This document shows positions 22,020 to 37,242 of a stretch of 64,000 nt of DNA, in pieces (the stretch's first letter is position 1; every line of letters begins with the position of its first letter). The DNA lies in NCBI GenBank assembly GCA_965221165.1, contig CBDCRP010000003.1, forward strand, positions 1,536,064-1,600,063, written 5' to 3'. This stretch comes from a bacterium. Lineage in GTDB: Bacteria > UBA8248. The notes beneath the pieces are model-generated. The model had not been told where the DNA came from. It did not search any database and saw only the letters and a list, made by a program, of their open reading frames with translations. The translations under genes were made by a program, and so were the position numbers.

Positions 22020-22100
22020 GGCTCATCCTCTGCGATGCCCGAGGCGGACTACCTGACGGGCCAGACGTTGACGGTGAACGGCGGATGGCTGATGATGTGA
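22020..22100 (+). pseudogene. 3'-terminal remnant of a short-chain dehydrogenase/reductase gene
   Basis: In-frame ...SSSAMPEADYLTGQTLTVNGGWLMM* is the typical SDR C-terminus (xYITGQxLxVxGG). No upstream body is present. A REP lies immediately upstream. Confidence 0.5.
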
Positions 22101-22116
22101 GGGAGGGGCGGATGGA

Positions 22117-24261
22117 ATGGCGAAATTGGCCAGAGCGGCAAAAACGGGCGGGCGCAGCCAGGCGAAATCCCGCTTTGCCGTGGGCGTGGACGTGGGGGGT
22201 ACGTTCACCGATGCGGTGATCGTGGACACGGAGCGGGGCAGGATCTATCAGTCCAAGGCCCCGACCACTCCCCAAGACCTATCGCAGGGCGTTTTCGACG
22301 CGCTGAACCTCAGCGAGGGTTTCTCGGCCGAAACCCTCCTCCCCCGGACGAACAAATTCGCTCACGGAACCACCCAGTCCACCAACGCCCTCTTCACCCG
22401 GAACGGGGCCAAGGTGGGCCTTATCGCCACCCGTGGGTTCGGGGATCAGATTCTCATCATGCGCGGCGGGGGGCGCGTGGCGGGGATGAGCCTGCCCGAG
22501 CGGCGCCACTTCGCTCCGACGTACAAACCCGATCCCATCGTCCCCAAGCCCCTCATCGTCGAGGTGTCCGAGCGGGTGGACTACAAAGGGGCCGTCATCA
22601 CCCCCCTCGACCCCGAGGAGGCACGCCGGGCGGTCGAAGCGCTTCTGGAAAAGGGGGTGGAGGCCATCTCGATTGCCCTCCTCTGGTCCCTCCGCAATCC
22701 GGCGCACGAGCGCGCCTTGCGCGATATCGCCGCCGCGCTTTCTCCCGGCACCTACGTGAGCGTCTCCTCGGAACTGGCGCCCGTCATCGGGGAGTACGAG
22801 CGAACCGCCACCGCGGTCATCGACGCCTACGTGGGTCCCTCCACCGTGGATTACATCCGCCTCCTGGCGGAACGCCTCCGTGACGCCGGACTTCGAAGCG
22901 CCCTCCTCATCCTCCAGGCGGGAGGGGGCGTCAGCCGAGCCGAGCAGGTGGTGCCGGTTCAGACCATCGAGTCGGGCCCGGCGGCGGGTATTCTGGCGAG
23001 CCAGTTCCTCGCCGAAAAACTGGGCCACCGGAACGTGATCGCCACCGACGTGGGCGGGACCACCTTCAAGGTGGGTCTCATCGTGGAGGGCGAGTGGGCT
23101 TACGCCCGGGATACGGTGGTCGAGAAGTTCACCTACCGCGCTCCCATGGTGGACGTGACCTCCATCGGTGCGGGGGGCGGCTCCATCGCGTGGGTGGACG
23201 AGGGGAGGCTCCGAATCGGCCCCCAAAGCGCGGCGGCGGAGCCGGGGCCCGCCTGCTATGGCCGGGGGGGCGCGGAGCCCACCGTGACGGATGCGGATGT
23301 GGTGCTGGGCTACATCGATCCTGATTATTTCCTGGGTGGGCGGATGCCCCTCGAAGGCGCGCTGGCGGAAAAGTCCATCCGAGAGCGGATCGCGGAGCCG
23401 CTCTTCGGGGGCGACGTGGTGCGGGCGGCGCTGGGAATCCGCCAGGTGGTGAACGCGCAGATGGCGGACTTGCTGCGCAAGGTGACGGTCGAGCGGGGGC
23501 ACGACCCCCGCGACTTCGTCCTCATGGTGTACGGTGGGGCGGGGCCTACGCATTGCACCCTTTTCGGCCCGGAGGCGGGCGTCGGCCGGGCGGTCGTCCC
23601 TTTCACCGCGCCGGTGCACTCCGCCTTCGGCGCGGTGACCTCGGACATGCGCATCACCCTGGAGCGGTCGGACCCCCTGGCCGCGCCGCCCGAACCGGGC
23701 CGGGTACGGAGTCTGTATCGGGCTCTTGAGAATGAAGCCCTGGAGCGGCTCAAGGCCGAGGGCAAGCGTCGGGGGGAGATCGAGCTTAGCCGCTCGGCCT
23801 CGCTCCGCTACCGCCGGCAGATGCATGAAGTGAGCGTTCCCGTTCCCGCTGGAAGGCTCGACGGAAAGGCGCTCGCGGGGACGGTGGACGAGTTCGAGCG
23901 CCGCTACGAGGCGCGCTACGGTCGGGGGGCGGCCTACCGGGAGGCGGGGGTGGAGTTCATCGGCTTCAAGGTCGAGGCCGTCGGAAGGGAGGCGAAGCCC
24001 CGGCTCGAGCGTCGGCGCCCGAAGGGGAAGAGCCCAAGCGGCGCGCTCAAGGGCCGGCGCCCGGTTTGCTTTGACGCCGTCAAGGGCCACCGGCGCACGC
24101 CGATCTACGAGGGTGAGCGGCTGGCGTCCGGCAACCTCGTCCCGGGGCCCGCCATCATCGAGTACGCCTCCACCACGGTGGTGGTGGGGCCGCGCCAGCG
24201 GGCCGAGGTGGATCCATACCAAAACGTGACGCTCCACCTAGGGGGAGGACGGAGGCGATGA
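22117..24261 (+). CDS. Hydantoinase/oxoprolinase A-family protein (HyuA / acetone-carboxylase-beta-like)
   Basis: FAVGVDVGGTFTDAVIVD, ATDVGGTTFKVGLI and ADVVLGYIDPDYFLGG. 714 aa. Confidence 0.85.
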   Translation: MAKLARAAKTGGRSQAKSRFAVGVDVGGTFTDAVIVDTERGRIYQSKAPTTPQDLSQGVFDALNLSEGFSAETLLPRTNKFAHGTTQSTNALFTRNGAKVGLIATRGFGDQILIMRGGGRVAGMSLPERRHFAPTYKPDPIVPKPLIVEVSERVDYKGAVITPLDPEEARRAVEALLEKGVEAISIALLWSLRNPAHERALRDIAAALSPGTYVSVSSELAPVIGEYERTATAVIDAYVGPSTVDYIRLLAERLRDAGLRSALLILQAGGGVSRAEQVVPVQTIESGPAAGILASQFLAEKLGHRNVIATDVGGTTFKVGLIVEGEWAYARDTVVEKFTYRAPMVDVTSIGAGGGSIAWVDEGRLRIGPQSAAAEPGPACYGRGGAEPTVTDADVVLGYIDPDYFLGGRMPLEGALAEKSIRERIAEPLFGGDVVRAALGIRQVVNAQMADLLRKVTVERGHDPRDFVLMVYGGAGPTHCTLFGPEAGVGRAVVPFTAPVHSAFGAVTSDMRITLERSDPLAAPPEPGRVRSLYRALENEALERLKAEGKRRGEIELSRSASLRYRRQMHEVSVPVPAGRLDGKALAGTVDEFERRYEARYGRGAAYREAGVEFIGFKVEAVGREAKPRLERRRPKGKSPSGALKGRRPVCFDAVKGHRRTPIYEGERLASGNLVPGPAIIEYASTTVVVGPRQRAEVDPYQNVTLHLGGGRRR

Positions 24262-26465
24262 GCGGGAAGCGCCTGGACCCCGTAACCTTCGAGGTTATCC
24301 TGCACAAGCTGAACCAGATCGCCGAGGAGATGTGCATCAGCTACGTGAATTGTTCGGGTTCGGAGCCGCTTGTCCAGGCCAACGACGCCAACGCGGGGAT
24401 CACGCTGCCGGACGGCTCCATGGTGGTGGTGGGGCCCTACGTCATCATCCAGGCCAACGTCCTTCCCCTCACCGTCTCCCATATCATGAAGCGGTGCCGG
24501 GAGAATCCGGGGATCGGCGAGAAGGACATGTTCATCTGCAGCGACCCCTGGGTGGGCCCCATCCACCAGCCCGACATCACCACGGTGGCCCCGCTCTTCT
24601 ACGAGGGCGATATCTTCTGCTGGACGGGCGCCTCGGGGCACCAATCGGACATAGGGGGGAAGGACCCGGGCGGGTTCTCCATCGGGGTGGTGGACGTCCA
24701 CCAGGAGGGCCTCCGGATGCCCCCGGTCAAGCTGGTGGAAGAGGGAGAGCTCCGCCAGGACCTTTTCGACTGGATCGTGAACTCGGTGCGGGATCCTCTG
24801 GTGGGCCTCGACGTCAAGGGCCAGATCGCGGCCAACCACGTGGGCCAGGAGAGGCTGATCGAGCTCATCGGGCGCTTCGGGGCGAAGGCGGTCAAGGCTT
24901 CCATGGAGGAGTCCATCCGCTACACCGAGAGGCGTCTCCGCAGGCGCCTGCGCTCTTTGCCCGACGGCACCTGGCGCACCCGCCAGCACATCGATCACGA
25001 CGGCCACGCGCCCAACCTCTACAAGATGGAATGCACCATGACGAAGCGGGGCGACAGCCTCTCGTTCGACTACGAGGGAACCGACCCCCAGGTGCGCAGC
25101 CAAGTGAACTGCACCTACACCGGCCTCATCGCCGGGACCCTCACCCCCGTCTATATCATGCTCGCCCACGACATCCCCTGGAACCGCGGCATCCTGAACC
25201 GGGTGGACATCCGCGCCCCCGAAGGGGTGATCAACAACTGCACCTATCCGACGCCCTGCTCCATGGCCACGGTATCGGCCTGTTACCTGACGCTGGACCT
25301 CGCCGCGGCCGCCATCAACCAGATGTGCGCGGCCTCGCCGGACTACCACGAGGAGGCCATGGCGATCTGGACCGCCGCCTCGGTGGCCCCCATGGTGAGC
25401 GGCACCAGCCAGCACGGCCATCCGTTCAGCCTAGTCGAGATGAGCCACTTCGCCGCGGGGGGCGGTGCCCTGACCCACAAGGACGGACAGGACAGCGCCG
25501 GGATGTACTTCACCACCACCCCCCTCATCTCCAACATCGAGACCACCGAGCAGTTCTACCCCGTCCTCTACCTCTTCCGACGGAATCTCCCGGATACCGG
25601 GGGGGCGGGCATGTACCGGGGCGGGTGCGCGGGCGAGATCGCCTTCATCCCGCACGACATGCAGAAGGAGTTCCACGAAACCGTTCTCATCGGAACCGGT
25701 CACGAGATGCCCAACTCGATCGGGCTGTGGGGTGGATTTCCCGGCGGTACCGGACGCCACATTCTCATACGCGGCTCGGACGTTCTGGACCGAATCGCGA
25801 AGAAAGCGCCCCTTCCCGCCACCCTGGAGGAAATGGGGGGCGAGCAGGTGGTCTTTCCGCCCAAGGCGCCCCGGACGCCCTTCTACCCGGGCGAGATCTG
25901 GTACTCGAACTGGCAGGGGGCGGGCGGATACGGTGACCCCCTGGACCGCGACCCCGAGGCGGTGCATGCCGACCTGTCGGCGGGGCTCGTCACCCGCGCC
26001 TGCGCCGAAGAGATCTACGGCGTGGCCCTGGATCCAGACGGGCGGGCGGACCATCCGGCCACTTCCGCCCTTCGGGAGCGCCATCGGGAGGCGCGGCGCG
26101 CGCGGGCGGGAGGCGGCTCCGTCCGCCCGGGCGACCCCCCGGCCCTTGCGGGAAGAGGGCTTCGGGCGAACGAGTACGTTGTCTGGGACGATGCGAATGG
26201 TGAACTCGCCTGCCGCAAATGCGGCTTCGGCTTCGGCCCCATGGACGCGGATCCCAAAGAGCGCGCCCTCTGCGAGGACGCTCCCCTCGCGGTCGGAGGG
26301 CCGATCATGGGGCAGCTCTATGACCGGGGGCGGTTCGTCTTTCGGCTCTATTATTGTCCCGGCTGCGTTTCGCTCCTGGAGTGCGAGGTTCTCCGGAAGG
26401 GGGACCCACCCGTCTGGGGCAGGCTCTCGGCGACCCGGCCCTGGCCGGGGAGAAAGAAGGTCTGA
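24258..26465 (+). CDS. Hydantoinase B/oxoprolinase-family protein with a fused C-terminal Cys4 zinc ribbon (acetone-carboxylase-gamma-like)
   Basis: LDPVTFEVILHKLNQIAEEM at the N-terminus. The C-terminus has ACRKCGFGFGP...YYCPGCVSLLECEV. There is an ATGA overlap with hyuA-like. Confidence 0.8.
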   Translation: MSGKRLDPVTFEVILHKLNQIAEEMCISYVNCSGSEPLVQANDANAGITLPDGSMVVVGPYVIIQANVLPLTVSHIMKRCRENPGIGEKDMFICSDPWVGPIHQPDITTVAPLFYEGDIFCWTGASGHQSDIGGKDPGGFSIGVVDVHQEGLRMPPVKLVEEGELRQDLFDWIVNSVRDPLVGLDVKGQIAANHVGQERLIELIGRFGAKAVKASMEESIRYTERRLRRRLRSLPDGTWRTRQHIDHDGHAPNLYKMECTMTKRGDSLSFDYEGTDPQVRSQVNCTYTGLIAGTLTPVYIMLAHDIPWNRGILNRVDIRAPEGVINNCTYPTPCSMATVSACYLTLDLAAAAINQMCAASPDYHEEAMAIWTAASVAPMVSGTSQHGHPFSLVEMSHFAAGGGALTHKDGQDSAGMYFTTTPLISNIETTEQFYPVLYLFRRNLPDTGGAGMYRGGCAGEIAFIPHDMQKEFHETVLIGTGHEMPNSIGLWGGFPGGTGRHILIRGSDVLDRIAKKAPLPATLEEMGGEQVVFPPKAPRTPFYPGEIWYSNWQGAGGYGDPLDRDPEAVHADLSAGLVTRACAEEIYGVALDPDGRADHPATSALRERHREARRARAGGGSVRPGDPPALAGRGLRANEYVVWDDANGELACRKCGFGFGPMDADPKERALCEDAPLAVGGPIMGQLYDRGRFVFRLYYCPGCVSLLECEVLRKGDPPVWGRLSATRPWPGRKKV

Positions 26466-26833
26466 GGTCGAATGGGAAAAAGAAGCGACACTTCTTTTTT
26501 TTCGGTCCATCGAGAGACCCTTGTTGACGTTGATGAAGAAACGGTTCCTGACACCGTTTCTTGCTACCGGTCGAATTCGCCTCGTTCAGCGGCCTTTCAT
26601 TCTCTGCTCGGCTCGTATTCTTCGTTCCTTCCAGACTTCGTCCAAACCTCGTTCATCCAGTTTAATCCATTTTATATCAATTGGTTGAGCCGAATTATCC
26701 ACCTCCGGCAGGTAACCCGCGACAGGGCCGGGGACGGCGCCCGGCCGCAGTGTCAGGAACCAGACAACGGACTGTCAAGAGGGCTGCTCAGCTCAAAAAT
26801 GCTCCCGGATTCGGCAGCAATGTGAGAAAACAA
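25373..26833 (+). repeat. Direct repeat copy 1 (1,461 bp): hyuB-like codons ~373-735 plus 368 bp downstream
   Basis: Every six-frame ORF in this interval recurs identically at +3861 (for example 25431..26510 = 29292..30371 and 25732..26688 = 29593..30549). I placed the boundaries by reading both junctions. Confidence 0.9.
26476..26502 (+). terminator. Candidate intrinsic terminator downstream of hyuB-like
   Basis: gaaaaagaag-cgaca-cttcttttttttc: an A-run, a 9-bp stem and a T-run, 11 nt after the stop codon. Confidence 0.6.
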
Positions 26834-26854
26834 AACTATTTTTGTTCGCCTACA
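26821..26854. mobile_element. Minimal TGT...ACA inverted-repeat element at the end of repeat copy 1
   Basis: TGTGAGAAAACAAAA-cta-TTTTTGTTCGCCTACA. Confidence 0.55.
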
Positions 26855-26857
26855 CGC

Positions 26858-26995
26858 ATCGAAACCGCAGTCGATTGTGTCCTGGTCATCGACCACAACC
26901 CGGGGCTCGAAGACCTCACCGCCCAGATTTGCGGCGGCGGACCCGAGCCCATGCGCCAGCGTATGGACGAGAAATTCCCGACCGCCGCCCTGGCC
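26858..26995 (+). pseudogene. Fragment of a histidine-phosphatase (SixA-like) gene
   Basis: ...VLVIDHNPGLEDLTAQICGGG...EKFPTAALA resembles the SixA-family C-terminal half (GHNPGL ... FPTAA). It has no N-terminal RHG part and no start codon. Confidence 0.4.
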
Positions 26996-27226
26996 GCGTG
27001 GGTGGACGAGGAGAGGCTCCGAATCGGCCCCCAAAGCGCGCCGGCCGAAGCCGAGGAACGCCACTACGCTATGCTGGAGCAGTCAGCCATGGCGGCGTGA
27101 CTCAAACAAAATGGCCTCCGCCAAACCCGGCGCGGTTCAGCGTGACAGCGATGTTTTCTGTTACAAATCTATGGTATAAAGAATCCCGGAACTTCTACTA
27201 GTTTAAGATAAGAAAGAGAACAGCCA

Positions 27227-28378
27227 ATGCTGACTGTCATCAAGCCTGTGAATACCGTAAAGCTGGCCATTGCAGGGGTTGGAAATTGTGCGAGCTCGTT
27301 GGTTCAGGGCATTGCGCATTACAGGAAGGGCCGCGTCGAGGTCCTGCCCGGTCTGATGCACCCCTGTATCGGGGGCTGGGGCCCGGGTGATCTGGAGGTC
27401 GTGGCCGCCTTTGACGTCGACCGCCGAAAGGTCGGGCGACCCCTGGAGGAGGCGATCTTCGCCAAGCCCAATTGCACGATGGTCTTCGAGGATGAGCTTC
27501 CCTCATCGGGCGTCGTGGTCCAGATGGGACCCGTTCTCGACGGCGTTGCGCCACACATGGCGGATTATCCCGATGACGAGGCATTCCGTCCGGCCGATGC
27601 CGATCCGGTTGATATCGCAGATGTCTTTAAGCGAACCGGCGCGGAGGTGCTGGTCTGCTACCTGCCGGTCGGCTCGGAGCAGGCGGCGCTGCATTACGCC
27701 CAGGCCTGCCTCGACACGGGCGTTGCCATGGTGAACTGCATACCCGTGTTCATCGCCTCAAATCCCAGCTGGGCGGAGAAGTTCAAGATCGCTGGGGTGC
27801 CAATCGTGGGCGACGACATCAAGAGCCAAGTCGGCGCCACGATCGCACATCGGCTCTTGACACGTCTGTTCGGCGACCGCGGTTACACCCTGGACCGCAC
27901 CTATCAACTGAACACCGGCGGCAACACCGACTTCCTCAACATGAAGGCCCTGGACCGGCTGACATCGAAGAAGGTGTCCAAGACGGAATCCGTTCAATCG
28001 CAACTCGATGTGCGCCTCGGCGGGCGCGACATCCATATCGGCCCGTCAGACTACGTGCCCTGGCAAGGCGACAACAAAGTCGCCTTTATCCGCATGGAAG
28101 GACGCGGGTTCGGCAGCGCTCCCATCGAGATCGAGATGCGCCTCTCGGTCCAGGATTCGCCCAACAGCGCCGGCGTCGTCATCGACGCCGTCCGCTGCGC
28201 CAGGCTCGGCATGGTGCGGGGTATGGCGGGTCCGCTGGAAGCGCCGTCTTCCTATTACATGAAATCGCCGCCGGTCCAGATGCGCGATTCCGTCGCCCGC
28301 GACTTGTGTGACGCGTTCATCGAAGAAGGGCGCGCCGAAGCACCGGCGGCCCGAATCGTGAAGTCGGCGGCGGAGTAG
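27227..28378 (+). CDS. ino1: myo-Inositol-1-phosphate (inositol-3-phosphate) synthase, prokaryotic type
   Basis: VKLAIAGVGNCASSLVQGIAHY, LPVGSEQAALHYAQACLDTGVAMVNCIP, GDDIKSQVGATI and SKKVSKTESV. Confidence 0.8.
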   Translation: MLTVIKPVNTVKLAIAGVGNCASSLVQGIAHYRKGRVEVLPGLMHPCIGGWGPGDLEVVAAFDVDRRKVGRPLEEAIFAKPNCTMVFEDELPSSGVVVQMGPVLDGVAPHMADYPDDEAFRPADADPVDIADVFKRTGAEVLVCYLPVGSEQAALHYAQACLDTGVAMVNCIPVFIASNPSWAEKFKIAGVPIVGDDIKSQVGATIAHRLLTRLFGDRGYTLDRTYQLNTGGNTDFLNMKALDRLTSKKVSKTESVQSQLDVRLGGRDIHIGPSDYVPWQGDNKVAFIRMEGRGFGSAPIEIEMRLSVQDSPNSAGVVIDAVRCARLGMVRGMAGPLEAPSSYYMKSPPVQMRDSVARDLCDAFIEEGRAEAPAARIVKSAAE

Positions 28379-28414
28379 ACGCGTGTTCCAACCACGGTGG
28401 GGGAGCCTGGTGAC

Positions 28415-29209
28415 ATGACCGGAGAGGAGGCGAGCGCCGGCATGTCCGGGCATTTCGCCAGGGTGGCGGAGGTCTACGGCACGGTCCGGACCACCGATCG
28501 GGACCCGGTCCACTATATTCGCGATGCCCTGGCCGATCGGGCAAACGTGCGCGCGGCCGATATCGGATGCGGCGACGGGCGCTACGACAGGCTGCTGTTC
28601 GACCATATACCCAACCTGCACCTCGTCTGCGTGGATTCCAGCGCGCCGATGCTGGAACGCCTCTTCGATTGCCTCGCTGAGGCGCGCATCGACAATTTCG
28701 TGACCCGGTTGTCCGGCGTCAACGACTTGGCGCTCGAGGACGATTCCCTGGACGCCATCCTCACCTTCAATGCGGTGCACCATTTCAACGTTCCCGCCTT
28801 TCTGGCCAAAGCCCGGCGCGCGCTCAGAGACGACGGCCGCCTGTTCATCTATACACGCACGCCCGAACAGAACGCGGGCACCCTATGGGGGCGTTTCTTC
28901 CCGCGCTTCACCGAGAAGGAATCGCGGCTCCACACTATCAAAAGCATGGAAGCATGGATCGCCGGGACACCCGGCCTCGAAATGGTCGAGGCGAGAGTGT
29001 TTAGATATGCCCGGACGGCAAGCCTGGACCGCCTGTTCGAACAAATGCGGAGCCGGCACTACTCGACCTTTTCGCTCTATGACGAGCGGGAGTTCGAGGA
29101 AGCATGTCGTGGTTTCGACGAACGAATCCGCGACGCGTTCGATGATCTCGAGGCCATTCGATGGTACGACGAGAACATCATGCTGCACCTGGTTAGAATC
29201 GAGGTCTGA
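28415..29209 (+). CDS. Class I SAM-dependent methyltransferase
   Basis: Motif I is ADIGCGDGRYDRLL, and post-I/II is ILTFNAVHHF. An alternative GTG start lies at 28397. Confidence 0.75.
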   Translation: MTGEEASAGMSGHFARVAEVYGTVRTTDRDPVHYIRDALADRANVRAADIGCGDGRYDRLLFDHIPNLHLVCVDSSAPMLERLFDCLAEARIDNFVTRLSGVNDLALEDDSLDAILTFNAVHHFNVPAFLAKARRALRDDGRLFIYTRTPEQNAGTLWGRFFPRFTEKESRLHTIKSMEAWIAGTPGLEMVEARVFRYARTASLDRLFEQMRSRHYSTFSLYDEREFEEACRGFDERIRDAFDDLEAIRWYDENIMLHLVRIEV

Positions 29210-29233
29210 CCGGCCCCTGTCCGGGACACGGCT

Positions 29234-30326
29234 CGCCGCCTCGGTGGCCCCCATGGTGAGCGGCACCAGCCAGCACGGCCATCCGTTCAGCCTAGTCGAG
29301 ATGAGCCACTTCGCCGCGGGGGGCGGTGCCCTGACCCACAAGGACGGACAGGACAGCGCCGGGATGTACTTCACCACCACCCCCCTCATCTCCAACATCG
29401 AGACCACCGAGCAGTTCTACCCCGTCCTCTACCTCTTCCGACGGAATCTCCCGGATACCGGGGGGGCGGGCATGTACCGGGGCGGGTGCGCGGGCGAGAT
29501 CGCCTTCATCCCGCACGACATGCAGAAGGAGTTCCACGAAACCGTTCTCATCGGAACCGGTCACGAGATGCCCAACTCGATCGGGCTGTGGGGTGGATTT
29601 CCCGGCGGTACCGGACGCCACATTCTCATACGCGGCTCGGACGTTCTGGACCGAATCGCGAAGAAAGCGCCCCTTCCCGCCACCCTGGAGGAAATGGGGG
29701 GCGAGCAGGTGGTCTTTCCGCCCAAGGCGCCCCGGACGCCCTTCTACCCGGGCGAGATCTGGTACTCGAACTGGCAGGGGGCGGGCGGATACGGTGACCC
29801 CCTGGACCGCGACCCCGAGGCGGTGCATGCCGACCTGTCGGCGGGGCTCGTCACCCGCGCCTGCGCCGAAGAGATCTACGGCGTGGCCCTGGATCCAGAC
29901 GGGCGGGCGGACCATCCGGCCACTTCCGCCCTTCGGGAGCGCCATCGGGAGGCGCGGCGCGCGCGGGCGGGAGGCGGCTCCGTCCGCCCGGGCGACCCCC
30001 CGGCCCTTGCGGGAAGAGGGCTTCGGGCGAACGAGTACGTTGTCTGGGACGATGCGAATGGTGAACTCGCCTGCCGCAAATGCGGCTTCGGCTTCGGCCC
30101 CATGGACGCGGATCCCAAAGAGCGCGCCCTCTGCGAGGACGCTCCCCTCGCGGTCGGAGGGCCGATCATGGGGCAGCTCTATGACCGGGGGCGGTTCGTC
30201 TTTCGGCTCTATTATTGTCCCGGCTGCGTTTCGCTCCTGGAGTGCGAGGTTCTCCGGAAGGGGGACCCACCCGTCTGGGGCAGGCTCTCGGCGACCCGGC
30301 CCTGGCCGGGGAGAAAGAAGGTCTGA
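29234..30326 (+). pseudogene. Duplicated 3' portion of the hyuB-like gene (last ~363 codons), with no cognate 5' part
   Basis: From ...SVAPMVSGTSQHGHPFSLVEM to the stop it is identical to 25373..26465. The 518-aa track ORF 28770..30326 is an accidental upstream extension that overlaps the methyltransferase in another frame. Confidence 0.8.
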
Positions 30327-30336
30327 GGTCGAATGG

Positions 30337-30363
30337 GAAAAAGAAGCGACACTTCTTTTTTTT
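30337..30363 (+). terminator. Duplicate of the hyuB-like terminator hairpin
   Basis: Same sequence as 26476..26502, inside repeat copy 2. Confidence 0.5.
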
Positions 30364-30681
30364 CGGTCCATCGAGAGACCCTTGTTGACGTTGATGAAGA
30401 AACGGTTCCTGACACCGTTTCTTGCTACCGGTCGAATTCGCCTCGTTCAGCGGCCTTTCATTCTCTGCTCGGCTCGTATTCTTCGTTCCTTCCAGACTTC
30501 GTCCAAACCTCGTTCATCCAGTTTAATCCATTTTATATCAATTGGTTGAGCCGAATTATCCACCTCCGGCAGGTAACCCGCGACAGGGCCGGGGACGGCG
30601 CCCGGCCGCAGTGTCAGGAACCAGACAACGGACTGTCAAGAGGGCTGCTCAGCTCAAAAATGCTCCCGGATTCGGCAGCAA

Positions 30682-30728
30682 TGTGAGAAAACAATGTCTC
30701 GATTCGCAATTATTTTTGTTTCCCCACA
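30682..30728. mobile_element. TGT...ACA inverted-repeat mini-element at the end of repeat copy 2
   Basis: TGTGAGAAAACAA-tgtctc-GATTCGCAATTATTTTTGTTTCCCCACA. Confidence 0.55.
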
Positions 30729-30814
30729 CTGGCGCCGCCGGCGAGATCGCCTCACCGGCTCAAGGCGTCACTTGTTACGAGCGAGGCTGCCGCCCCGATA
30801 ACGCTCCGCCTTCG

Positions 30815-31759
30815 TCACTCCGTGAAGGACTGGTGGGTCTTCATCACGTTGTAGCTGTGAAGGTCCCGGAAAAAGCCGATCCGCGGGTGATCCTCGGGCG
30901 GGGAGTAGGGCCTGTCGAGAGCGAACGGGATCCGCTCCATCGCCTCGGCGAGCGTCCATCCGGCGCTGACGGCCCCGCGAACAGACTGGGTCACGTCGCT
31001 CAGGTATTGCATGTACCCGCCCAGGAGCTCCGGCCCCGAAATGGGGTTGTGGGCGGGTATGAGGGTTTCGACCTCGAGCGTCTGGGCGAGGCGCGCGATC
31101 GAGTTCATGTAGGTCGGCGCGTCGCTCTCCAGGGGGACGATGAGGTTTCCGCCCGTCATGTTGCCCGTCCAGGCGGCCTTCGCCTCGGGAACGTAGGTGA
31201 TGGTGTCGCCGGGGGTGTTCGCCGGGCCGAAATAGTGCAGCTCCACCACCTTTCCCCCCAGGTCGATCCGCAGGTAGTCGTCGAAGACGACGTCGGGGCG
31301 GCGCAACTCCACCTCCTCTAAAATCTTCGGGTCGTTCCCCACGCAGGGCAGCATGAAGCGCCTCTCCTCCTCGTGATAGGGAACGAGGTCCGCCGTCCGG
31401 CGGTGCTGGATGATCACCGTCTCGGCCGGAAACGCGCAGTTCCCGAAGGTATGGTCCCCGTGGTAGTTGGAGTTGACGAGGTAGCGGATGGGCTTATCGG
31501 TCACTTCGCGCACCCGTTCCTGAATCTGGCGCCCCATGGCCGGGTTGATGTGGGCGTCGACCACCAGCACGTCTCTATCACCCACGACGAAGCCGACGTT
31601 GTCCACGTTGGGGACGGAGGAAAGAAGCGCGTACACCCCCGGAGAGAGCTCCTTCGCGTCCAGCCGCGCCCCCGTCGGGTCGAGGAAGAAGGGAGTGAAT
31701 CCCTCCGGAAAATCCGCCCACTCCAGACATTTCCAACCATCCTTCGCAGAAGCGTTCAT
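30815..31759 (-). CDS. MBL-fold metallo-hydrolase
   Basis: VLVVDAHINPAMG and YLVNSNYHGDHTFGN (variant HxHxDH). 314 aa. Confidence 0.75.
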   Translation of the reverse strand: MNASAKDGWKCLEWADFPEGFTPFFLDPTGARLDAKELSPGVYALLSSVPNVDNVGFVVGDRDVLVVDAHINPAMGRQIQERVREVTDKPIRYLVNSNYHGDHTFGNCAFPAETVIIQHRRTADLVPYHEEERRFMLPCVGNDPKILEEVELRRPDVVFDDYLRIDLGGKVVELHYFGPANTPGDTITYVPEAKAAWTGNMTGGNLIVPLESDAPTYMNSIARLAQTLEVETLIPAHNPISGPELLGGYMQYLSDVTQSVRGAVSAGWTLAEAMERIPFALDRPYSPPEDHPRIGFFRDLHSYNVMKTHQSFTE

Positions 31760-31803
31760 CTCGGACTCCTTTCAGCTATCGGCTGGTATGCGCGCCTCAC
31801 CAC

Positions 31804-31883
31804 TGTAGCTGGACAAAATAATTGCAAAAGGCCTAAAAATCAACTTTTTACAGGCCATTCGCAATTATTTTTGTTTGACTACA
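31804..31883. mobile_element. 80-bp MITE-like element with ~31-bp TGT...ACA terminal inverted repeats
   Basis: The left arm is TGTAGCTGGACAAAATAATTGCAAAAGGCC. The right arm is GGCCATTCGCAATTATTTTTGTTTGACTACA. They are separated by a ~20-bp spacer. Confidence 0.65.
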
Positions 31884-31901
31884 AACAGGCGGTTTTTCCA
31901 A

Positions 31902-31931
31902 GCCATTCGCAATTATTTTTGTTCGGCTACA
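31902..31931 (+). repeat. Solo additional copy of the right-end motif
   Basis: GCCATTCGCAATTATTTTTGTTCGGCTACA, 18 bp after the 80-bp element and in the same orientation. Confidence 0.65.
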
Positions 31932-32153
31932 GCGGCGGGGAAATGCTCCACCGCGCCGCATTCCCACGTGTATACAACGCCACGGACGGTCTCAGCTCCT
32001 GAAGCATTCGATGAGGTCATGGTTCGGCGCTCTCGTTTCAATGTAAGGCCCATGCGATCCTGACAGATAGAACGGGCGCAACCGCCGGCCAAGTAAGATA
32101 ATAGACAGAGTGCCAGGAGATTTAACTCTGATTACAGCGGGCCATCGTTTGAA

Positions 32154-33845
32154 TCAGAAAACCGGCGTTTCCCGGTAGGTGCCCCAGACCGACTTCAGTT
32201 TCTCGACGATATCTCCCATTGTTGCGCCCTCGCGCACAAGTTCAACCGTGACGGGCATGATGTTCCGCGTCTCGTCCTTTGCGACGGAGACGAGCTCCTC
32301 CAGAAGCATATCGACCTTGGCGTTGTCGCGTTCGGCGCGCACCCTCCTCGTCCGCGCGATCTGCCGATCGGCGGTCGTGGAATCATAGGGATGGGTCTCG
32401 ACCTCCTGGTTTTCGTCCTCCTCGACCATGGTGTTGACCCCGATGACCGGCTTTTCACCGGATTGCTTGCGCAAGGCGGTCTCATAAGCGAAGTCGGCGA
32501 TCTGCTTCTGGAACCAGCCTTCCTCGATCAATTTGATCGTGCCGCCGTTTTCATCCACATAGTCGAGAATCTCGAAAATGCGCGTCTCGTACTCGTTGGT
32601 CAGGCTCTCGAGGTAGTAGGAGCCGCCCACCGGATCGATGACGTTGGTGACGTTTGTTTCCTCTGCAATTATCTGCTGCGTGCGCAAGGCTAGCCGCATG
32701 GCGTCCTCGGTCGGAATCGCGAACGCTTCGTCATAGCCGTTTGTGTGCAGCGACTGGCAACCGCCAAGGACTGCGGCGAGGGCCTGGAACGCGGTTCGCA
32801 CGATGTTGATCCGGTATTGCGGCTTGGTCAGGGTCGCGGCCGCGGTCTGGCAATGGAAACGAAGCCGCATCGATTCCGGGTTCTTTGCGCCAAAGCGCTC
32901 TTTCATGATCTTGGCGTAACAGCGGCGCAGCGCCCGGAACTTGGCGATCTCCTCGAACAGGTCCGCTTGCGAGACGTAGAAGAAAGCAAGCCTCGGCGCG
33001 AACTCGTCGACGTTCATGCCGATCTTCAGCACCTCCTCCACGTAGACGATCAGGTTGGCCATGGTGAAGGCGGCCTCCTGCAAAGGCGAGGAGCCGGCCT
33101 CCGAGATGTGATAACCCGAGATATTGATCGGGTTGTACCGCTTCATATTGCGGCCGCAGAAGGAGATGCAATCGCGCACGATGCGGACCGATGGCGCGAT
33201 CGGATAGATGTACTCCTTCTGCGCCATATACTCTTTCAGTATGTCCGCCTGGATGGTGCCTGAGAGCTTGTTCAGGTCGAGGCCGCGCTTCTCGGCCAGC
33301 GCCACATACATGGCGAGCAAGATCCAGGCACTGGGGTTGATGGTCATCGATACGGAGATGTTCTCGAGATCGATGCCGTCGAACAGCGCCTCCATGTCGG
33401 CGAGCGTATCCACGGCCACGCCTTCGCGGCCCACCTCGCCCTCGCTCATCGGATGGTCGGAGTCGTAGCCCATGAGCGTGGGCATATCGAAGTCGGTCGA
33501 TAGCCCTGTCTGCCCCTGCGAGATCAGATATTTGAAACGTTTGTTGGTGTCTTCGCCGGTACCGAAACCGGCGATCTGGCGCATGGTCCACACCCGACCG
33601 CGATACATCGTCGGGTAGGGCCCGCGCGTAAAGGGATAGCGCCCCGGCAGACCGATATCCTCGAGTGGCGTTTCAGCAATATCGGCAGCGGTATAGACAC
33701 GCTGCACCGGAAAATCGCCGATTGTGAAGAATTGCTCCTTGCGCTCGGCTTGTTTCTTCAGGAAGGCAGCGACCTCGTCGCTCTCCCAATGCTCGATCTC
33801 GCTCCGGAGTTTCTCAAGCGAATTTAGAGTGAACATCTCGTTCAT
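32154..33845 (-). CDS. hcmA: B12-dependent acyl-CoA mutase large (substrate-binding) subunit, HcmA-type
   Basis: GRYPFTRGPYPTMYRGRVWTMRQIAGFGTGEDTNKRFKYLISQGQTGLSTDFDMPT has Ile in RQ-I-AGF and Asp in LST-D-FD. The start is at ATG 33845 after GAGGGAG, giving 563 aa. Confidence 0.75.
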   Translation of the reverse strand: MNEMFTLNSLEKLRSEIEHWESDEVAAFLKKQAERKEQFFTIGDFPVQRVYTAADIAETPLEDIGLPGRYPFTRGPYPTMYRGRVWTMRQIAGFGTGEDTNKRFKYLISQGQTGLSTDFDMPTLMGYDSDHPMSEGEVGREGVAVDTLADMEALFDGIDLENISVSMTINPSAWILLAMYVALAEKRGLDLNKLSGTIQADILKEYMAQKEYIYPIAPSVRIVRDCISFCGRNMKRYNPINISGYHISEAGSSPLQEAAFTMANLIVYVEEVLKIGMNVDEFAPRLAFFYVSQADLFEEIAKFRALRRCYAKIMKERFGAKNPESMRLRFHCQTAAATLTKPQYRINIVRTAFQALAAVLGGCQSLHTNGYDEAFAIPTEDAMRLALRTQQIIAEETNVTNVIDPVGGSYYLESLTNEYETRIFEILDYVDENGGTIKLIEEGWFQKQIADFAYETALRKQSGEKPVIGVNTMVEEDENQEVETHPYDSTTADRQIARTRRVRAERDNAKVDMLLEELVSVAKDETRNIMPVTVELVREGATMGDIVEKLKSVWGTYRETPVF

Positions 33846-34818
33846 GGTCTCCCTCTCTTTCGAGCGTCGTCGAGAGCAATTCTTCTGCCAGAGAATAGGG
33901 ATCGCTCTCTCGGCGCATAAGCTGTTCGGCAAGTTTCGCGCTCGCCGCAGCCGTGGCAACGTTAAATCGATCATACAAAAGATTTTCGGCGGTCTTGCGC
34001 AGCCGGAATTCTGCGATGCTTTTGCGCCGCGCCCGGCCCGCATCGGTATCAGAGGTCACATCGCGATGCCGGGCAATCGCCTTCAGCAACTCGTCGAGCC
34101 CTTCTCCGGAAACAGAACTGGTACCGATCACGGGGACAGCCCAGTCGGATGGTTCGTGCCCGTGCATTCCGAGCGTCAGCATTTGCTTCAAATCGATCAG
34201 CGTCCGATTGGCGTCGCTGCGGTCGCATTTCGACACTACATGGATGTCGGCGATCTCCAGAATGCCCGCCTTGATCGCCTGGATCTCGTCGCCAAGGCCG
34301 GGCGGGGAAACCACTACCGTGGTGTGGGAAGCCCGCACGATCTCGACCTCGTCCTGGCCCACGCCAACGGTTTCCAGAATGATGACCCCAAAACCGGCGG
34401 CATCAAGAATATCGACCGCCTCGAGAGCCGCGCGCGCCATGCCGCCAGTCGCCCCGTGAGTCGCCATGCTGCGGATATAAATGCCGGGATCGGTCCCTAT
34501 GTCGCTCATGCGAATGCGGTCTCCCAGGATGGAGCCGCCCGAAAAGGGAGAGGATGGATCAATCGCAATGATGCCGACCTTCTCGCCGCTGGAACGCAGT
34601 CTTTGCGCCAGCCGGCTAACGAGTGTGGATTTTCCGCTGCCGGTTACCCCGGTTATGCCAACGACATGCGCTCGTCCGGCAAGTTTGTGAATCCGGGCGA
34701 GTGCGTCACGCGCTTCCGCCAGGCCCGACTCCGCGCGCGATATGAGGCGACCGATCGCGGCCGGCTCGCCTGTTTGAACGCGAGAAATGAGTTCCACGGA
34801 AGGGACATAGACTCTCAT
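33814..34818 (-). CDS. meaB: Mutase-associated G-protein chaperone (MeaB/ArgK family; MeaH-like in this context)
   Basis: GITGVTGSGKSTLV, AIDPSSPFSGGSILGDRIRM and VVSKCD. Confidence 0.85.
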   Translation of the reverse strand: MRVYVPSVELISRVQTGEPAAIGRLISRAESGLAEARDALARIHKLAGRAHVVGITGVTGSGKSTLVSRLAQRLRSSGEKVGIIAIDPSSPFSGGSILGDRIRMSDIGTDPGIYIRSMATHGATGGMARAALEAVDILDAAGFGVIILETVGVGQDEVEIVRASHTTVVVSPPGLGDEIQAIKAGILEIADIHVVSKCDRSDANRTLIDLKQMLTLGMHGHEPSDWAVPVIGTSSVSGEGLDELLKAIARHRDVTSDTDAGRARRKSIAEFRLRKTAENLLYDRFNVATAAASAKLAEQLMRRESDPYSLAEELLSTTLEREGDHERDVHSKFA

Positions 34819-36248
34819 CAGCGGTTTTCTTCATCCAGTTGTGTTTGCATCTCCTGGAAGACGGCCCTGTCGTCGATCACGCGGCGCGCCTTGAAATCCG
34901 TTCGGGGGATCGAGCCCGGCCCGACGATCTCCACGGCCGTCCGCAGCCCGAGCACCTTCTGCAACTGGTGCTCAACCTCGGTGCAGAACCGGGCGGCGCC
35001 GTCAGCATTGGCGAAGGTCTCGGTGTCGGTCTCGACGCGCAACTGTAACTCGTCCATTGCCGCCTCGCGGCTGATCACGATCCGGTGCTCTCCGCCATAG
35101 TGCGCAAGTTCGTTGAGCGCGGCGTCTATCTCGCTTGGATAAACATTCTCGCCGCGGATCGTGAACATGTCATCGATGCGCCCGAAAATACCGTGCGGCA
35201 GGCGCGGATAGGTCCGTCCACATGGGTTCAGTTCGTTGACCCATCGAGTCAGGTCCCCCGACGCCAGGCGGATCATTGGCTGAGAGGCGCGTTCGAGATG
35301 GGTGTACACAGGCGTTCCTCGTTCCCCGTAGGGGACCCGACGCATGGTTTCGGGATCGCACACTTCCGTGTAGACGACGTCCTGCCAGCAGAGCATTCCG
35401 TCCGTCTCGGCCGAACTTGCCACGTTCATCCACGGACTCATCTCGGCCATGGAACCGCTGTCGTAAACCTTGGCCCCGTAGAGCCCCTCGATGCGCTCGC
35501 GGATGGCCGGGATCGAGGCGCCAGGCTCACCGGAAAAGAACATGATTTTGAGCTGCATGTCGCGAGGGTTCAGGCCCTCGTCTTCCGCGACCCGGGCGAG
35601 GTGCAGGGCGTAGGTCGGCGTACCGTAGAAGGCGGTGGGCTTCAGCATGTCGAGCCATTGCACGCAGCGCGCCGACATGCCGGACGCGCCGGCGCCAAAC
35701 GGGAAAGATTTTGCACCGAGGCGTTCTGCGCCGGCGAGCGCCCCCCAACTCCCCATATAGAGAGAAAATACAGCGGCAATACAAATCGTATCCCCGGGGC
35801 GCAGACCCATGCTCCACATGATACGCGCATGCGCGTTGGCTATGGCGCGCCAGTCGCCCTGTGAGATGGCGAAGGCAGTGGGTCGCCCGGTCGTGCCACT
35901 GGTGCCATGGATGTGAAAGACATCGTCTTCGCCCACGCAGAGGTAACCACCAAAGGGCGGATTGCGTTCCTGGGCCTCGCGCAGGTCCTTCTTGGTAAGG
36001 ACCGGGACCTTCTCCTCGAAGTCCTCAAGCGACTTAAGCCGGCTCGGGTGAAAACCGGCCTCATCCCATTTGTGGCGATAGAGGGCCGCATGCTCGTAGG
36101 CATAGGCGCAGACTTGCCGAAGGCGCCCCAGGATGGCCTTCTCCCGGTCTCCCGCCGGCATCGTCTCCCGCCGGGGGAACCAGTAGCGGCTATCTGGAGC
36201 CGGCAGAAAGTTCTCGTCGTAAGCGGGTGGGAATGACCAGGACTCCAT
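34818..36248 (-). CDS. Phenylacetate-CoA-ligase-subfamily adenylate-forming acyl-CoA ligase (Hcl-like)
   Basis: FHIHGTSGTTGRPTAF, GEPGASIP and YGAKVYDSGSMAE. 476 aa. It sits between the two mutase subunits. Confidence 0.75.
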   Translation of the reverse strand: MESWSFPPAYDENFLPAPDSRYWFPRRETMPAGDREKAILGRLRQVCAYAYEHAALYRHKWDEAGFHPSRLKSLEDFEEKVPVLTKKDLREAQERNPPFGGYLCVGEDDVFHIHGTSGTTGRPTAFAISQGDWRAIANAHARIMWSMGLRPGDTICIAAVFSLYMGSWGALAGAERLGAKSFPFGAGASGMSARCVQWLDMLKPTAFYGTPTYALHLARVAEDEGLNPRDMQLKIMFFSGEPGASIPAIRERIEGLYGAKVYDSGSMAEMSPWMNVASSAETDGMLCWQDVVYTEVCDPETMRRVPYGERGTPVYTHLERASQPMIRLASGDLTRWVNELNPCGRTYPRLPHGIFGRIDDMFTIRGENVYPSEIDAALNELAHYGGEHRIVISREAAMDELQLRVETDTETFANADGAARFCTEVEHQLQKVLGLRTAVEIVGPGSIPRTDFKARRVIDDRAVFQEMQTQLDEENR

Positions 36249-36258
36249 GGATATCGGA

Positions 36259-36666
36259 TCAGCGCGCGCCGCGCTCCTCCACGAGACGGGTCAGCGTATC
36301 GATAATCGTTTGCGGTGGCGTATCCTGCAGCAACACCTCGCTTACCCCCATTTTCTTGAGTTGGACCACATCTTCGTCCGGCATAACACCGCCGGCCACG
36401 ACGATCATGTCATCGGCGCCGCCTTCCCGAAGCAGGTCGAATATCTTGGGGAACACCGTCATCTGCACACCGGACAAGAGACTTACGCCGAGCACGTCGA
36501 CGTCTTCCTGTACGGCAGCGGTCACCAACTCTTCCGGTGAGCGGTGAAGGCCGGTGTAGATCACGTCCATACCGGCGTCCCGCAGGGCGCGGGCGACGAT
36601 CTTGACGCCTCGGTCGTGACCGTCGAGACCCACCTTCGCCAGCAGGACGCGAATCGGCTGACCCAT
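36259..36666 (-). CDS. hcmB: Acyl-CoA mutase small B12-binding subunit, HcmB-type
   Basis: IRVLLAKVGLDGHDRGVKIVARALRDAGMDVIYTGL carries the DxHxxG cobalamin motif. 135 aa. Confidence 0.8.
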   Translation of the reverse strand: MGQPIRVLLAKVGLDGHDRGVKIVARALRDAGMDVIYTGLHRSPEELVTAAVQEDVDVLGVSLLSGVQMTVFPKIFDLLREGGADDMIVVAGGVMPDEDVVQLKKMGVSEVLLQDTPPQTIIDTLTRLVEERGAR

Positions 36667-36778
36667 GGGGCGTTCCTCATCGGGCTCTTATTTGTATACG
36701 AAAACGGTATTCAACCTGCACAAAAAGCACCATACTGTCAAGGGGAAACAGAATCGACCCGCAGGAAGGAATGATCTC

Positions 36779-36935
36779 GTGGACGCCCTTGCTCACCCGA
36801 AGACACTCGTCGAGCAAGCCTATGACGCCATGCTGGATGAAGTGGCAAAAAGGCTGAACGTCTCACGTCAGCCCATCACCAGCGCGCTGCCGATGCTCAA
36901 GTCCCAGGGCTTTGTTCGCGAAGCGGGGCGGCGGG
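36779..36935 (+). pseudogene. Remnant of a GntR-family regulator (HTH only, internally deleted, 3'-truncated)
   Basis: VDALAHPKTLVEQAYDAMLDE | VAKRLNVSRQPITSALPMLKSQGFVREAGRRG. About 15 residues normally found between the two parts are missing. The frame then runs into antisense arfB' sequence. Confidence 0.5.
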
Positions 36936-37242
36936 GTTTCGGGGGATTGGCGGCCTCGGCGAGGGCGGCTCTCAGTTTTTCCAGGCAATCGGCCACGTTT
37001 CTGCCCTGATCGCGAAAGCGGCTGCTCGCGATGACCACCTCGCGCGAGACGCGGCGCGGGAATTTCTCGCAAAACCTGCGCTTCACCTCTTCCGGCGCGC
37101 TCGCCGATGCGCCCATGTTCCAGCGGAGCACCGCCTTGCTCGACACCTTGTTCACGTTCTGCCCGCCGGGCCCCGAACTCCGCGCGAACTGAAAGTGGAT
37201 TTCCCTGAGCGGAATCTTGAGCCTCTCGTTCACGATGAGCAT
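36868..37242 (-). pseudogene. Diverged, 3'-truncated second copy of arfB (lacks the basic C-terminal tail)
   Basis: The first ~105 residues are about 90% identical to 21445..21864 (MLIVNERLKIPLREIHFQFARSSGPGGQNVNK...). After PPKPRRPA it reads into unrelated sequence. Its upstream ~95 bp is also shared with copy 1. Confidence 0.65.

Follow-up and report, generated by a model that had tools for sequence, protein, structure and literature searches.

Introduction

What are the tiny inverted-repeat elements, bounded by TGT and ACA, that sit between the gene blocks of a metabolic island in a bacterial genome, and what have they done to that island? The question is raised by a stretch of 64,000 nucleotides from GTDB lineage UBA8248 (contig CBDCRP010000003.1, positions 1,536,064 to 1,600,063; hereafter the window, whose own numbering is used below unless a contig or locus is named). 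In it, a first-pass annotation made from the letters alone had described four such sites, and had likened them to the termini of the transposon Tn7 and its reiterated TnsB sites. In this work we lean, modestly, towards an answer of that kind, i.e., that the four sites stem from a family of inverted-repeat elements peculiar to this lineage, of which they are decayed termini; its members would be small, modular and non-autonomous, with Tn7-type (TnsB/TniA-class) ends. Their present effect can be stated more plainly: the elements separate the blocks of an exchanged island and act as portable homology, and recombination between their arms has deleted, translocated and inverted blocks, leaving hybrid and shortened elements behind.

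Throughout, G000 is the source genome (a metagenome-assembled genome with an estimated contamination of 8.5%), other G-numbers are its relatives, C is a contig and L a numbered locus.

Four arms in the window

All four TGT...ACA sites are present where they had been announced, including the 34-bp palindrome (E1) and the 80-bp element (E3) (Table 1). Exact matches to the 19-mer ATTCGCAATTATTTTTGTT number three in the window where none is expected (0 in 100 shuffles), and a looser pattern of the tip gives eight matches against 0.45 expected. Every window arm carries a single 22-bp site. E1, which is 38 bp long in G005 between the same flanks, is the minimal form, with two tips and no more, and an open reading frame (ORF) fragment devoid of a start codon directly adjoins its right tip. 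E2 is an illegitimate join of the left tip of E1 to the terminal site of a long right end, and this right end is found intact in G005 and G007, where it measures about 150 nt and holds two sites spaced by 22 bp. E3 has arms of 25 nt with 84% complementarity according to the repeat tool, folds as single strands with z-scores of -5.2 and -7.6, and has orthologues in G005, G007, G010 and G003. At its centre, AATCAACTTTTTA (31838-31850) fits WATCAANNNNTTR, which we take to be the consensus of the integration host factor (IHF); the orthologues of E3 in G005 and G010 fit this presumed consensus less well.

The anatomy of the family emerges from 76 arm-like matches, taken from nine genomes and profiled without alignment. 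The consensus of the arm reads TTTTTCCAGGCC, then ATTCGCAATTATTTTTGT, then six variable bases, then ACA, the latter standing at the same offset in 50 of the 76. Information content stays high from about 15 nt inside the core through ACA and then falls to zero and, because conservation ends right after ACA, the arms are the termini of elements, with the tip towards the flanking genes. The conserved length is about 40 nt, growing into a terminal module of about 120 nt in many of the long copies, with a boundary lying exactly at TGT/ACA.

In the relatives, full copies measure 190-290 bp, and are thus short, non-coding and bounded by terminal inverted repeats, as MITEs (miniature inverted-repeat transposable elements) are. 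Each end consists of an 8-bp TGT tip, one to three contiguous 22-bp sites (unit GACAAAAATAATTGCGAATCCG) and a stretch rich in CCTGGAAAA/TTTCCAGG hairpin units. A 289-bp copy in G007 (L014 5447-5735) displays the whole arrangement: the tip TGTGGAGA, of 8 bp, leads into three contiguous 22-bp sites, after which come CCTGGAAAA/TTTCCAGG units, a central module and finally one site and a tip. Its equivalent in G005 has two sites at one end and one at the other, and G022 carries at the same locus a different interior made of three units of about 37 nt. The number of 22-bp units differs between orthologues, which we count among the signs of recombination. Ends with two sites at a spacing of 22 bp also occur in G008, G044 and on contig C2 of G000, and the central module is found in both orientations. 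The copies in G008 vary from 110 to 226 nt and have only their right end in common.

In G000, the arm on contig C2 passes on its inner side into a unit ...TTGATATTATTAGG..., ...CGCATTTCC.CGCATTTG... (C2:644330-644450, C2:780600-780800) that resembles the phased TGAAAA intergenic arrays of the same genome (41279-41450 and 54170-54344 in the window). The arm family and these arrays may be modules of one larger repeat system.

Table 1. Elements, genes, repeats and exchanged blocks discussed in the text
Feature	Position	Strand	Remarks
Block A (hyuA, hyuB)	22021-26924	+	98.3-98.8% identical to G005, G007, G022
hyuA	22117-24261		
hyuB	24258-26465		
Repeat copy 1	25373-26833	+	hyuB 3' part, intergenic region, left tip of E1
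E1	26821-26854		34-bp palindrome, minimal two-tip element; left tip TGTGAGAAAACAA..., right tip ...TTCGCCTACA
ORF fragment	26855-27100	+	Without start codon, begins at right tip of E1; chimera
Block B (inositol-1-phosphate-synthase-like gene, methyltransferase)	27039-29251	+	99.3-99.4% identical to G005, G007, placed elsewhere there
Inositol-1-phosphate-synthase-like gene	27227-28378		
Methyltransferase	28397-29209		
Repeat copy 2	29234-30694	+	Duplicated hyuB 3' part and intergenic region; right junction within E2
E2	30682-30728		Left tip of E1 type (13 nt) plus a long right end's terminal site
Block C (metallo-beta-lactamase-fold gene between arms)	30697-31921		95.4-95.6% identical to G005, G007
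Metallo-beta-lactamase-fold gene	30815-31759	minus	
E3	31804-31883		80-bp inverted-repeat element, upstream of the metallo-beta-lactamase-fold gene at 45 nt from its start
Extra right arm	31893-31931	+	Hybrid; first given as 31902-31931, starting 18 bp past E3
Block D (methylmalonyl-CoA mutase, AMP-binding enzyme, B12-binding protein)	31889-36810		97.5-97.6% identical to G005, G007
Methylmalonyl-CoA mutase and neighbours	32154 onward	minus	
GntR-type remnant	36779-37006	+	PF00392, E = 9e-6, below gathering score
Repeated sequence of about 1.3 kb	L020 17699-19001; G008 C3:19829-21830; G008 C10:1605356-1608053		

An island reshuffled at its arms

Of the seven boundaries of the blocks, four hold elements, whose tips face the genes in every case. 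The four blocks are 95.4-99.4% identical to their counterparts in three other species (G005, G007 and G022), against 84-91% for the core DNA flanking the island, and G007 keeps A and C at 2.92 Mb whilst B and D lie at 1.72 Mb. Because blocks so highly identical are yet placed differently among genomes, the island must have moved between species with its parts reshuffled; the evidence points to a recent horizontal exchange of the whole hyu/beta-lactamase-fold/mutase island (22021-36810, about 15 kb) between species of the genus.

Four observations link the elements to this reshuffling, the first being the illegitimate join in E2 described above. The extra right arm has the inner part of the arm that follows E3 in G005, and the tip and outer flank of the arm that precedes block D there. 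These two parental arms are direct repeats in G005, 3,332 bp apart with block B between them, and a crossover between them explains the C-D junction of G000. In G003 and G010 it is the other end of block D that E3 adjoins, a sign that this block has been inverted. The right end of block D, at 36810, coincides to the base with the position of an arm tip in G005, G007 and G022, and the GntR-type frame of G000 is uninterrupted across 36810/36811. Since that frame runs on in G000 where the relatives have an arm tip, 36810 represents an unoccupied site. The other half of the interrupted GntR gene was not found in G005, G007, G022, G003 or G010.

The direct repeat of 1,461 bp is perfect. The first-pass annotation had placed the first two elements precisely where this repeat loses identity, which holds for the right end only: there the repeat stops 13 nt into TGTGAGAAAACAA, the left tip common to E1 and E2, i.e., inside the elements. 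At the left end (25373/29234) no element is present, and what is found is a microhomology of about 15-18 nt with the sequence downstream of the methyltransferase gene. The repeat is best explained by insertion of a circle or sister copy. This molecule, bearing block B and the 3' part of hyuB, would have been closed at the microhomology junction and then have recombined homologously into hyuB; the two copies would part within E1 and E2 only because one of the partners already bore the deletion between E1 and E2. It is also conceivable that an assembler joined two strain variants.

A SixA-like reading of the ORF fragment beside E1 was rejected, as Pfam gives nothing for it. A 68-nt patch within it (26995-27062) is about 90% identical to the interior of hyuA (23187-23253), and could stem from a paralogue of hyuA or from gene conversion.

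A module of 10.15 kb, with an IclR-type regulator and six or seven further genes, is present twice in G000 (C2:634200-644400 and C2:780816-790905), the copies being 96% identical and lying in inverted orientation, separated by about 136 kb. G005, G007 and G022 have the module too, at 96% identity, and in these relatives the flanks of the first copy are not neighbours. Recombination between the two copies may have inverted the segment that separates them.

A patchy family

The exact 19-mer is confined to the window within the genome of G000. A looser scan of this genome adds two arm loci outside the window (C3:1745612/1747928 and C2:633907/644276), and the arm loci of G000 number four in all. 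Beyond G000, the motif is carried by 8 of the 22 species of the genus, by one species of another genus and by one of another family (the last two being G029 and G044). Carriers hold from one to 24 matches to a 24-mer, and G008 holds 49 matches to the version of about 226 nt, corresponding to more than 40 copies; copy number thus ranges from zero to over 40. Multiple copies are dispersed among unrelated flanks, again as in MITEs, and the element of about 290 bp is found, at about 85% identity, at unrelated loci with unrelated flanks in G007 (L014), G022 (L019) and G000 (C2, as two halves). Patchy distribution, variable copy number, a shared element at unrelated loci and the uninterrupted GntR frame together make a signature of mobility.

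Further afield, a 17-mer scan of GTDB genome contigs gave, beyond G007, G008 and G022, nothing but chance-like matches in unrelated, mostly AT-rich taxa, and a scan of JGI metagenomes with the pattern of two sites spaced by 22 bp returned only unrelated AT-rich repeats. No Rfam family was found for the elements. For an empty-site comparison of the G008 insertions, the closest relatives, only about 80% identical, have intergenic regions too diverged to align. Targeting of tRNA genes was considered and discarded, as such a gene adjoins only 1 of 18 copies in G008.

Longer units are repeated beyond some of the tips. In G044, an arm and 2.4 kb past its tip (containing a gene for an NMT1/THI5-like binding protein) are duplicated at 97.5% identity (L178 4828-7326 and L179 4345-6866). 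Just outside the tips at two G008 loci, in opposite orientations, lies the repeated sequence of about 1.3 kb, which has internal repeats and no recognisable domain. No transposase domains were found in either the 2.5-kb units of G044 or the 1.3-kb units of G008.

Tn7-type ends: for and against

How good is the likeness to Tn7? For this comparison, the real ends were read from plasmid R721, whose Tn7 has the 8-bp tip TGTGGGCG, contiguous 22-bp sites and a GTGCG duplication on both sides; the terminus that the first-pass annotation had quoted is exact and matches 225 plasmid records. Anchored at the tip, the window arms are identical to Tn7-L1 at 19-21 of 30 positions, a level that none of 2000 shuffles reaches. 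The proposed resemblance therefore stands as to the tip, the 22-bp layout and this anchored identity, and fails as to target duplication and TnsB, neither of which was found. According to the interpretation that we favour, the ends of the family would once have been bound and moved by a DDE transposase of the TnsB/TniA class, which would since have been lost from these genomes, leaving the copies orphan. The description of the ends as relic or non-autonomous fits. The statement of the first-pass annotation that it recognised no transposase in the window stands as well: a scan of the 20 ORFs from 18388 to 46204 brought up neither a transposase nor a recombinase gene.

A number of results weigh against this interpretation. 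When the tip does not serve as anchor, a local alignment with the entire Tn7 end fails to reach significance (244 of 2000 shuffles do as well), so that the similarity depends on anchoring at the tip. Neither a 5-bp nor any other target duplication, which had been proposed as a check, was found at any of the eight two-ended copies (one shows 4 of 5 bases). An inverted partner arm was not seen within 1.5 kb of the G008 copies. One arm, downstream of the 10-kb module of C2, is orthologous and decayed in two species otherwise free of the motif, in DNA about 90% identical, which means that some copies are old and have not been mobile recently.

The search for an enzyme is equally unfavourable. No rve gene (PF00665) was found in G005, G007, G008, G010, G013 or G003; elsewhere, G000 has one unrelated gene of the insertion-sequence type (309 amino acids) far from any arm, and G022 a broken one. 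A Tn7 TnsB query found nothing in 51 genomes of the class, and the N-terminal domain of TnsA (PF08722) gave one stray match in G008. G008, with 99% completeness and more than 40 copies, lacks transposases of the rve, IS4 and Tn3 types alike, and its tyrosine recombinases number only two. No autonomous partner element, such as a MITE should have, was found in the genomes of the genus or class or in one metagenome scan. The first-pass annotation had itself named a genome free of transposase-linked copies as grounds for giving up its idea, and no such copies were found in the genome. Since target duplication and transposase are both defining features and neither was found, membership in the Tn7-like family proper is not established.

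Candidates for the mobilising part were rejected. In G008, an oriented pair of arms 13 kb apart encloses ordinary genes and a restriction-modification pair, with no transposase. The TnsA-like match of the same genome lies outside the nearest arm. As a separate observation, a gene for an IS4-type transposase (484-497 amino acids) is present in 7 copies in G007 and 25 in G022, is absent from G008 and broken in G000 and G005, and shows no positional link to the arms.

Other readings of the arms

Could the arms rather be att-type or cassette-junction sites for a site-specific recombinase, with the 22-bp units as its arm-type binding sites and the blocks as the mobile units? A complete element between two blocks would then be a junction of the P-O-P' type between tandemly integrated modules. 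This would account for tips that always face gene blocks, for the lack of both target duplication and transposase, and for hybrid arms in which the tip octamer goes with the outer flank and the core with the inner flank. It would also suit contig C2, where the right and left halves of one 290-bp element, overlapping by about 7-8 nt, flank 10.3 kb consisting mostly of the conserved 10.15-kb module. G005 has, 4 kb from its island, an integrase that carries an arm-DNA-binding domain, the centre of E3 matches the presumed IHF consensus, and the boxes GCCRAAC and GTTYGGC are one mismatch off what we take to be the integron R''/R' consensus. Fragments of integrases occur at or near arms at three loci (L189 4428-4560, in the C3:1747928 region of G000; G007 L015 at about 11017; G007 L014 13560-14229), none of them intact: at one locus the fragment is fused to an arm on its inner side, at another it abuts a tip, and at a third, in G007, the homology ends about 130 nt before the tip, which speaks against this reading.

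Other features of the family nevertheless make such sites, in our judgement, unlikely. G008, with its more than 40 copies, has no tyrosine recombinases beyond the two, which are presumably XerC and XerD. The place where inner breakpoints gather is the end of the terminal module of about 120 nt rather than a central core, the central module stands in either orientation, and the arm has no dyad core of the type with a 6-8-bp spacer; an att-core model suggested by one split copy is not borne out by the distribution of inner breakpoints. On C2, a distance of 260 bp separates the right-half arm from the module boundary common to the 96%-identical copies, and the second copy in G000 has no arm. Finally, the blocks hold several genes in mixed orientation, unlike integron cassettes.

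A bolder variant holds that the arms are no dead transposon ends at all, but junction sites still at work, belonging to a system of module exchange that has not been described, in these symbionts. Metabolic blocks of several genes, each with one element, would be excised and reinserted at other elements by a recombinase not yet recognised, possibly the Xer proteins or a visiting integrase. If true, this would explain at once the tips facing blocks, the lack of duplication and transposase, and the presence of identical blocks at different places despite a core divergence of 10-15%. We consider it improbable.

The arms might instead be part of an intergenic repeat comparable to REP/BIME, BOX or Correia elements, maintained by the host, bound by an IHF-like or other nucleoid protein or acting on transcript ends, and spread by recombination and gene conversion. 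In G008, 13 of 18 copies have the 3' end of a gene facing the tip, and most lie between convergent genes, as would be expected of such a repeat. Interiors made of modular, phased A/T-tract arrays that vary between orthologues, one arm conserved at an orthologous site across the genus, the failure to find a mobilising enzyme and the C2 arm adjoining a unit like that of the second repeat family of G000 all go in the same direction. The sharp TGT/ACA boundary and the inverted pairing are, however, transposon-like, and copies interrupt genes (GntR, and the integrase fragments abutting arms). Moreover, 14 of the 22 species of the genus have no motif at the thresholds used, which is hard to square with a function for the host. 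We therefore give this possibility only a small chance.

The first-pass annotation had named an operator for a local regulator as a finding that would refute its idea. That the arms serve a regulator of the hyu/mutase cluster as operator or promoter is very improbable, and the dispersed copies contradict it: three arms do lie upstream of the metallo-beta-lactamase-fold gene, one of them in the same orientation and 45 nt from the gene's start, with a GntR remnant in the vicinity, but by inspection only about three of the seven arms point into a gene start, no sigma-70-like site is found in 26400-32200, the distribution is patchy, and dispersed copies stand beside unrelated genes at unrelated loci in G008, G044 and on C2 of G000.

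Implications

With Tn7-type termini still the reading that we favour, what would the family mean? To begin with, in a lineage that has been little studied, it marks concretely where horizontally exchanged metabolic blocks have their edges, and it illustrates that a few tens of bases of portable homology can drive the deletion, inversion and translocation of gene blocks. Should a partner enzyme be found, the Tn7-like world would be extended into a phylum where none has been described, and would gain natural miniature elements of its type. If no partner exists, the family would be a further orphan intergenic repeat whose means of spread is unknown.

Comparison with known systems

Several known systems share some of these features. 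As in the attP arms of lambda-type phages and the attC sites of integrons, reiterated predicted protein-binding sites flank both sides of an element that stands between gene modules, an IHF-like site is present, and imperfect palindromes vary in length. Unlike in these systems, a fixed core is not apparent, and there is no IntI and, in the copy-richest genome (G008), no dedicated integrase. The blocks hold one to five genes in both orientations, as integron cassettes do not, and the arms do not qualify as attC sites or as a cluster of attC sites lacking an integron integrase (CALIN).

Correia (NEMIS) and BOX elements are likewise small intergenic inverted-repeat elements with a central IHF site (here a match to the presumed consensus), no resident transposase and modular, variable interiors. 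The terminal repeat of Correia elements, TATAGCGGATTAACAAAAATCAGGAC, appears to bear an AACAAAAAT core as well. Correia elements, however, have a TA duplication and number hundreds in every strain of a species, whereas here the distribution is patchy and 22-bp sites are reiterated.

TIMEs are bacterial MITEs derived from Tn3: their ends are of the Tn3 type, they come with 5-bp duplications and their partner transposase is known; neither duplication nor partner was found here. The likeness to bacterial MITEs and TIMEs lies in the shortness of the elements, their terminal inverted repeats, their lack of coding capacity, the presence of several copies per genome and the ability of two copies to bracket genes. 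The title of one paper on TIMEs speaks of just such mosaic non-autonomous transposons, in which two copies bracket genes (PMC4133298).

The closest comparison remains that with Tn7. Unlike Tn7, the family has no 5-bp duplication, its elements measure 34-290 bp as against kilobases, its tips face gene blocks, and no tnsA or tnsB was found near the ends or in the genomes tested, tnsC and tniQ not having been searched for. As in Tn7, the tip of 8 bp starts with TGT and the termini read 5'-TGT...ACA-3'; inverted arrays of 22-bp sites are contiguous at one end and fewer at the other, as seen in G007 (3+1) and G005 (2+1); and the core of the site, GACAAAA(A)TA(R)TTG.GAA, resembles GACAAAATAGTTGGGAA of Tn7. 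Arrays of TnsB-binding sites are the hallmark that unites Tn7-like elements (PMC8649781).

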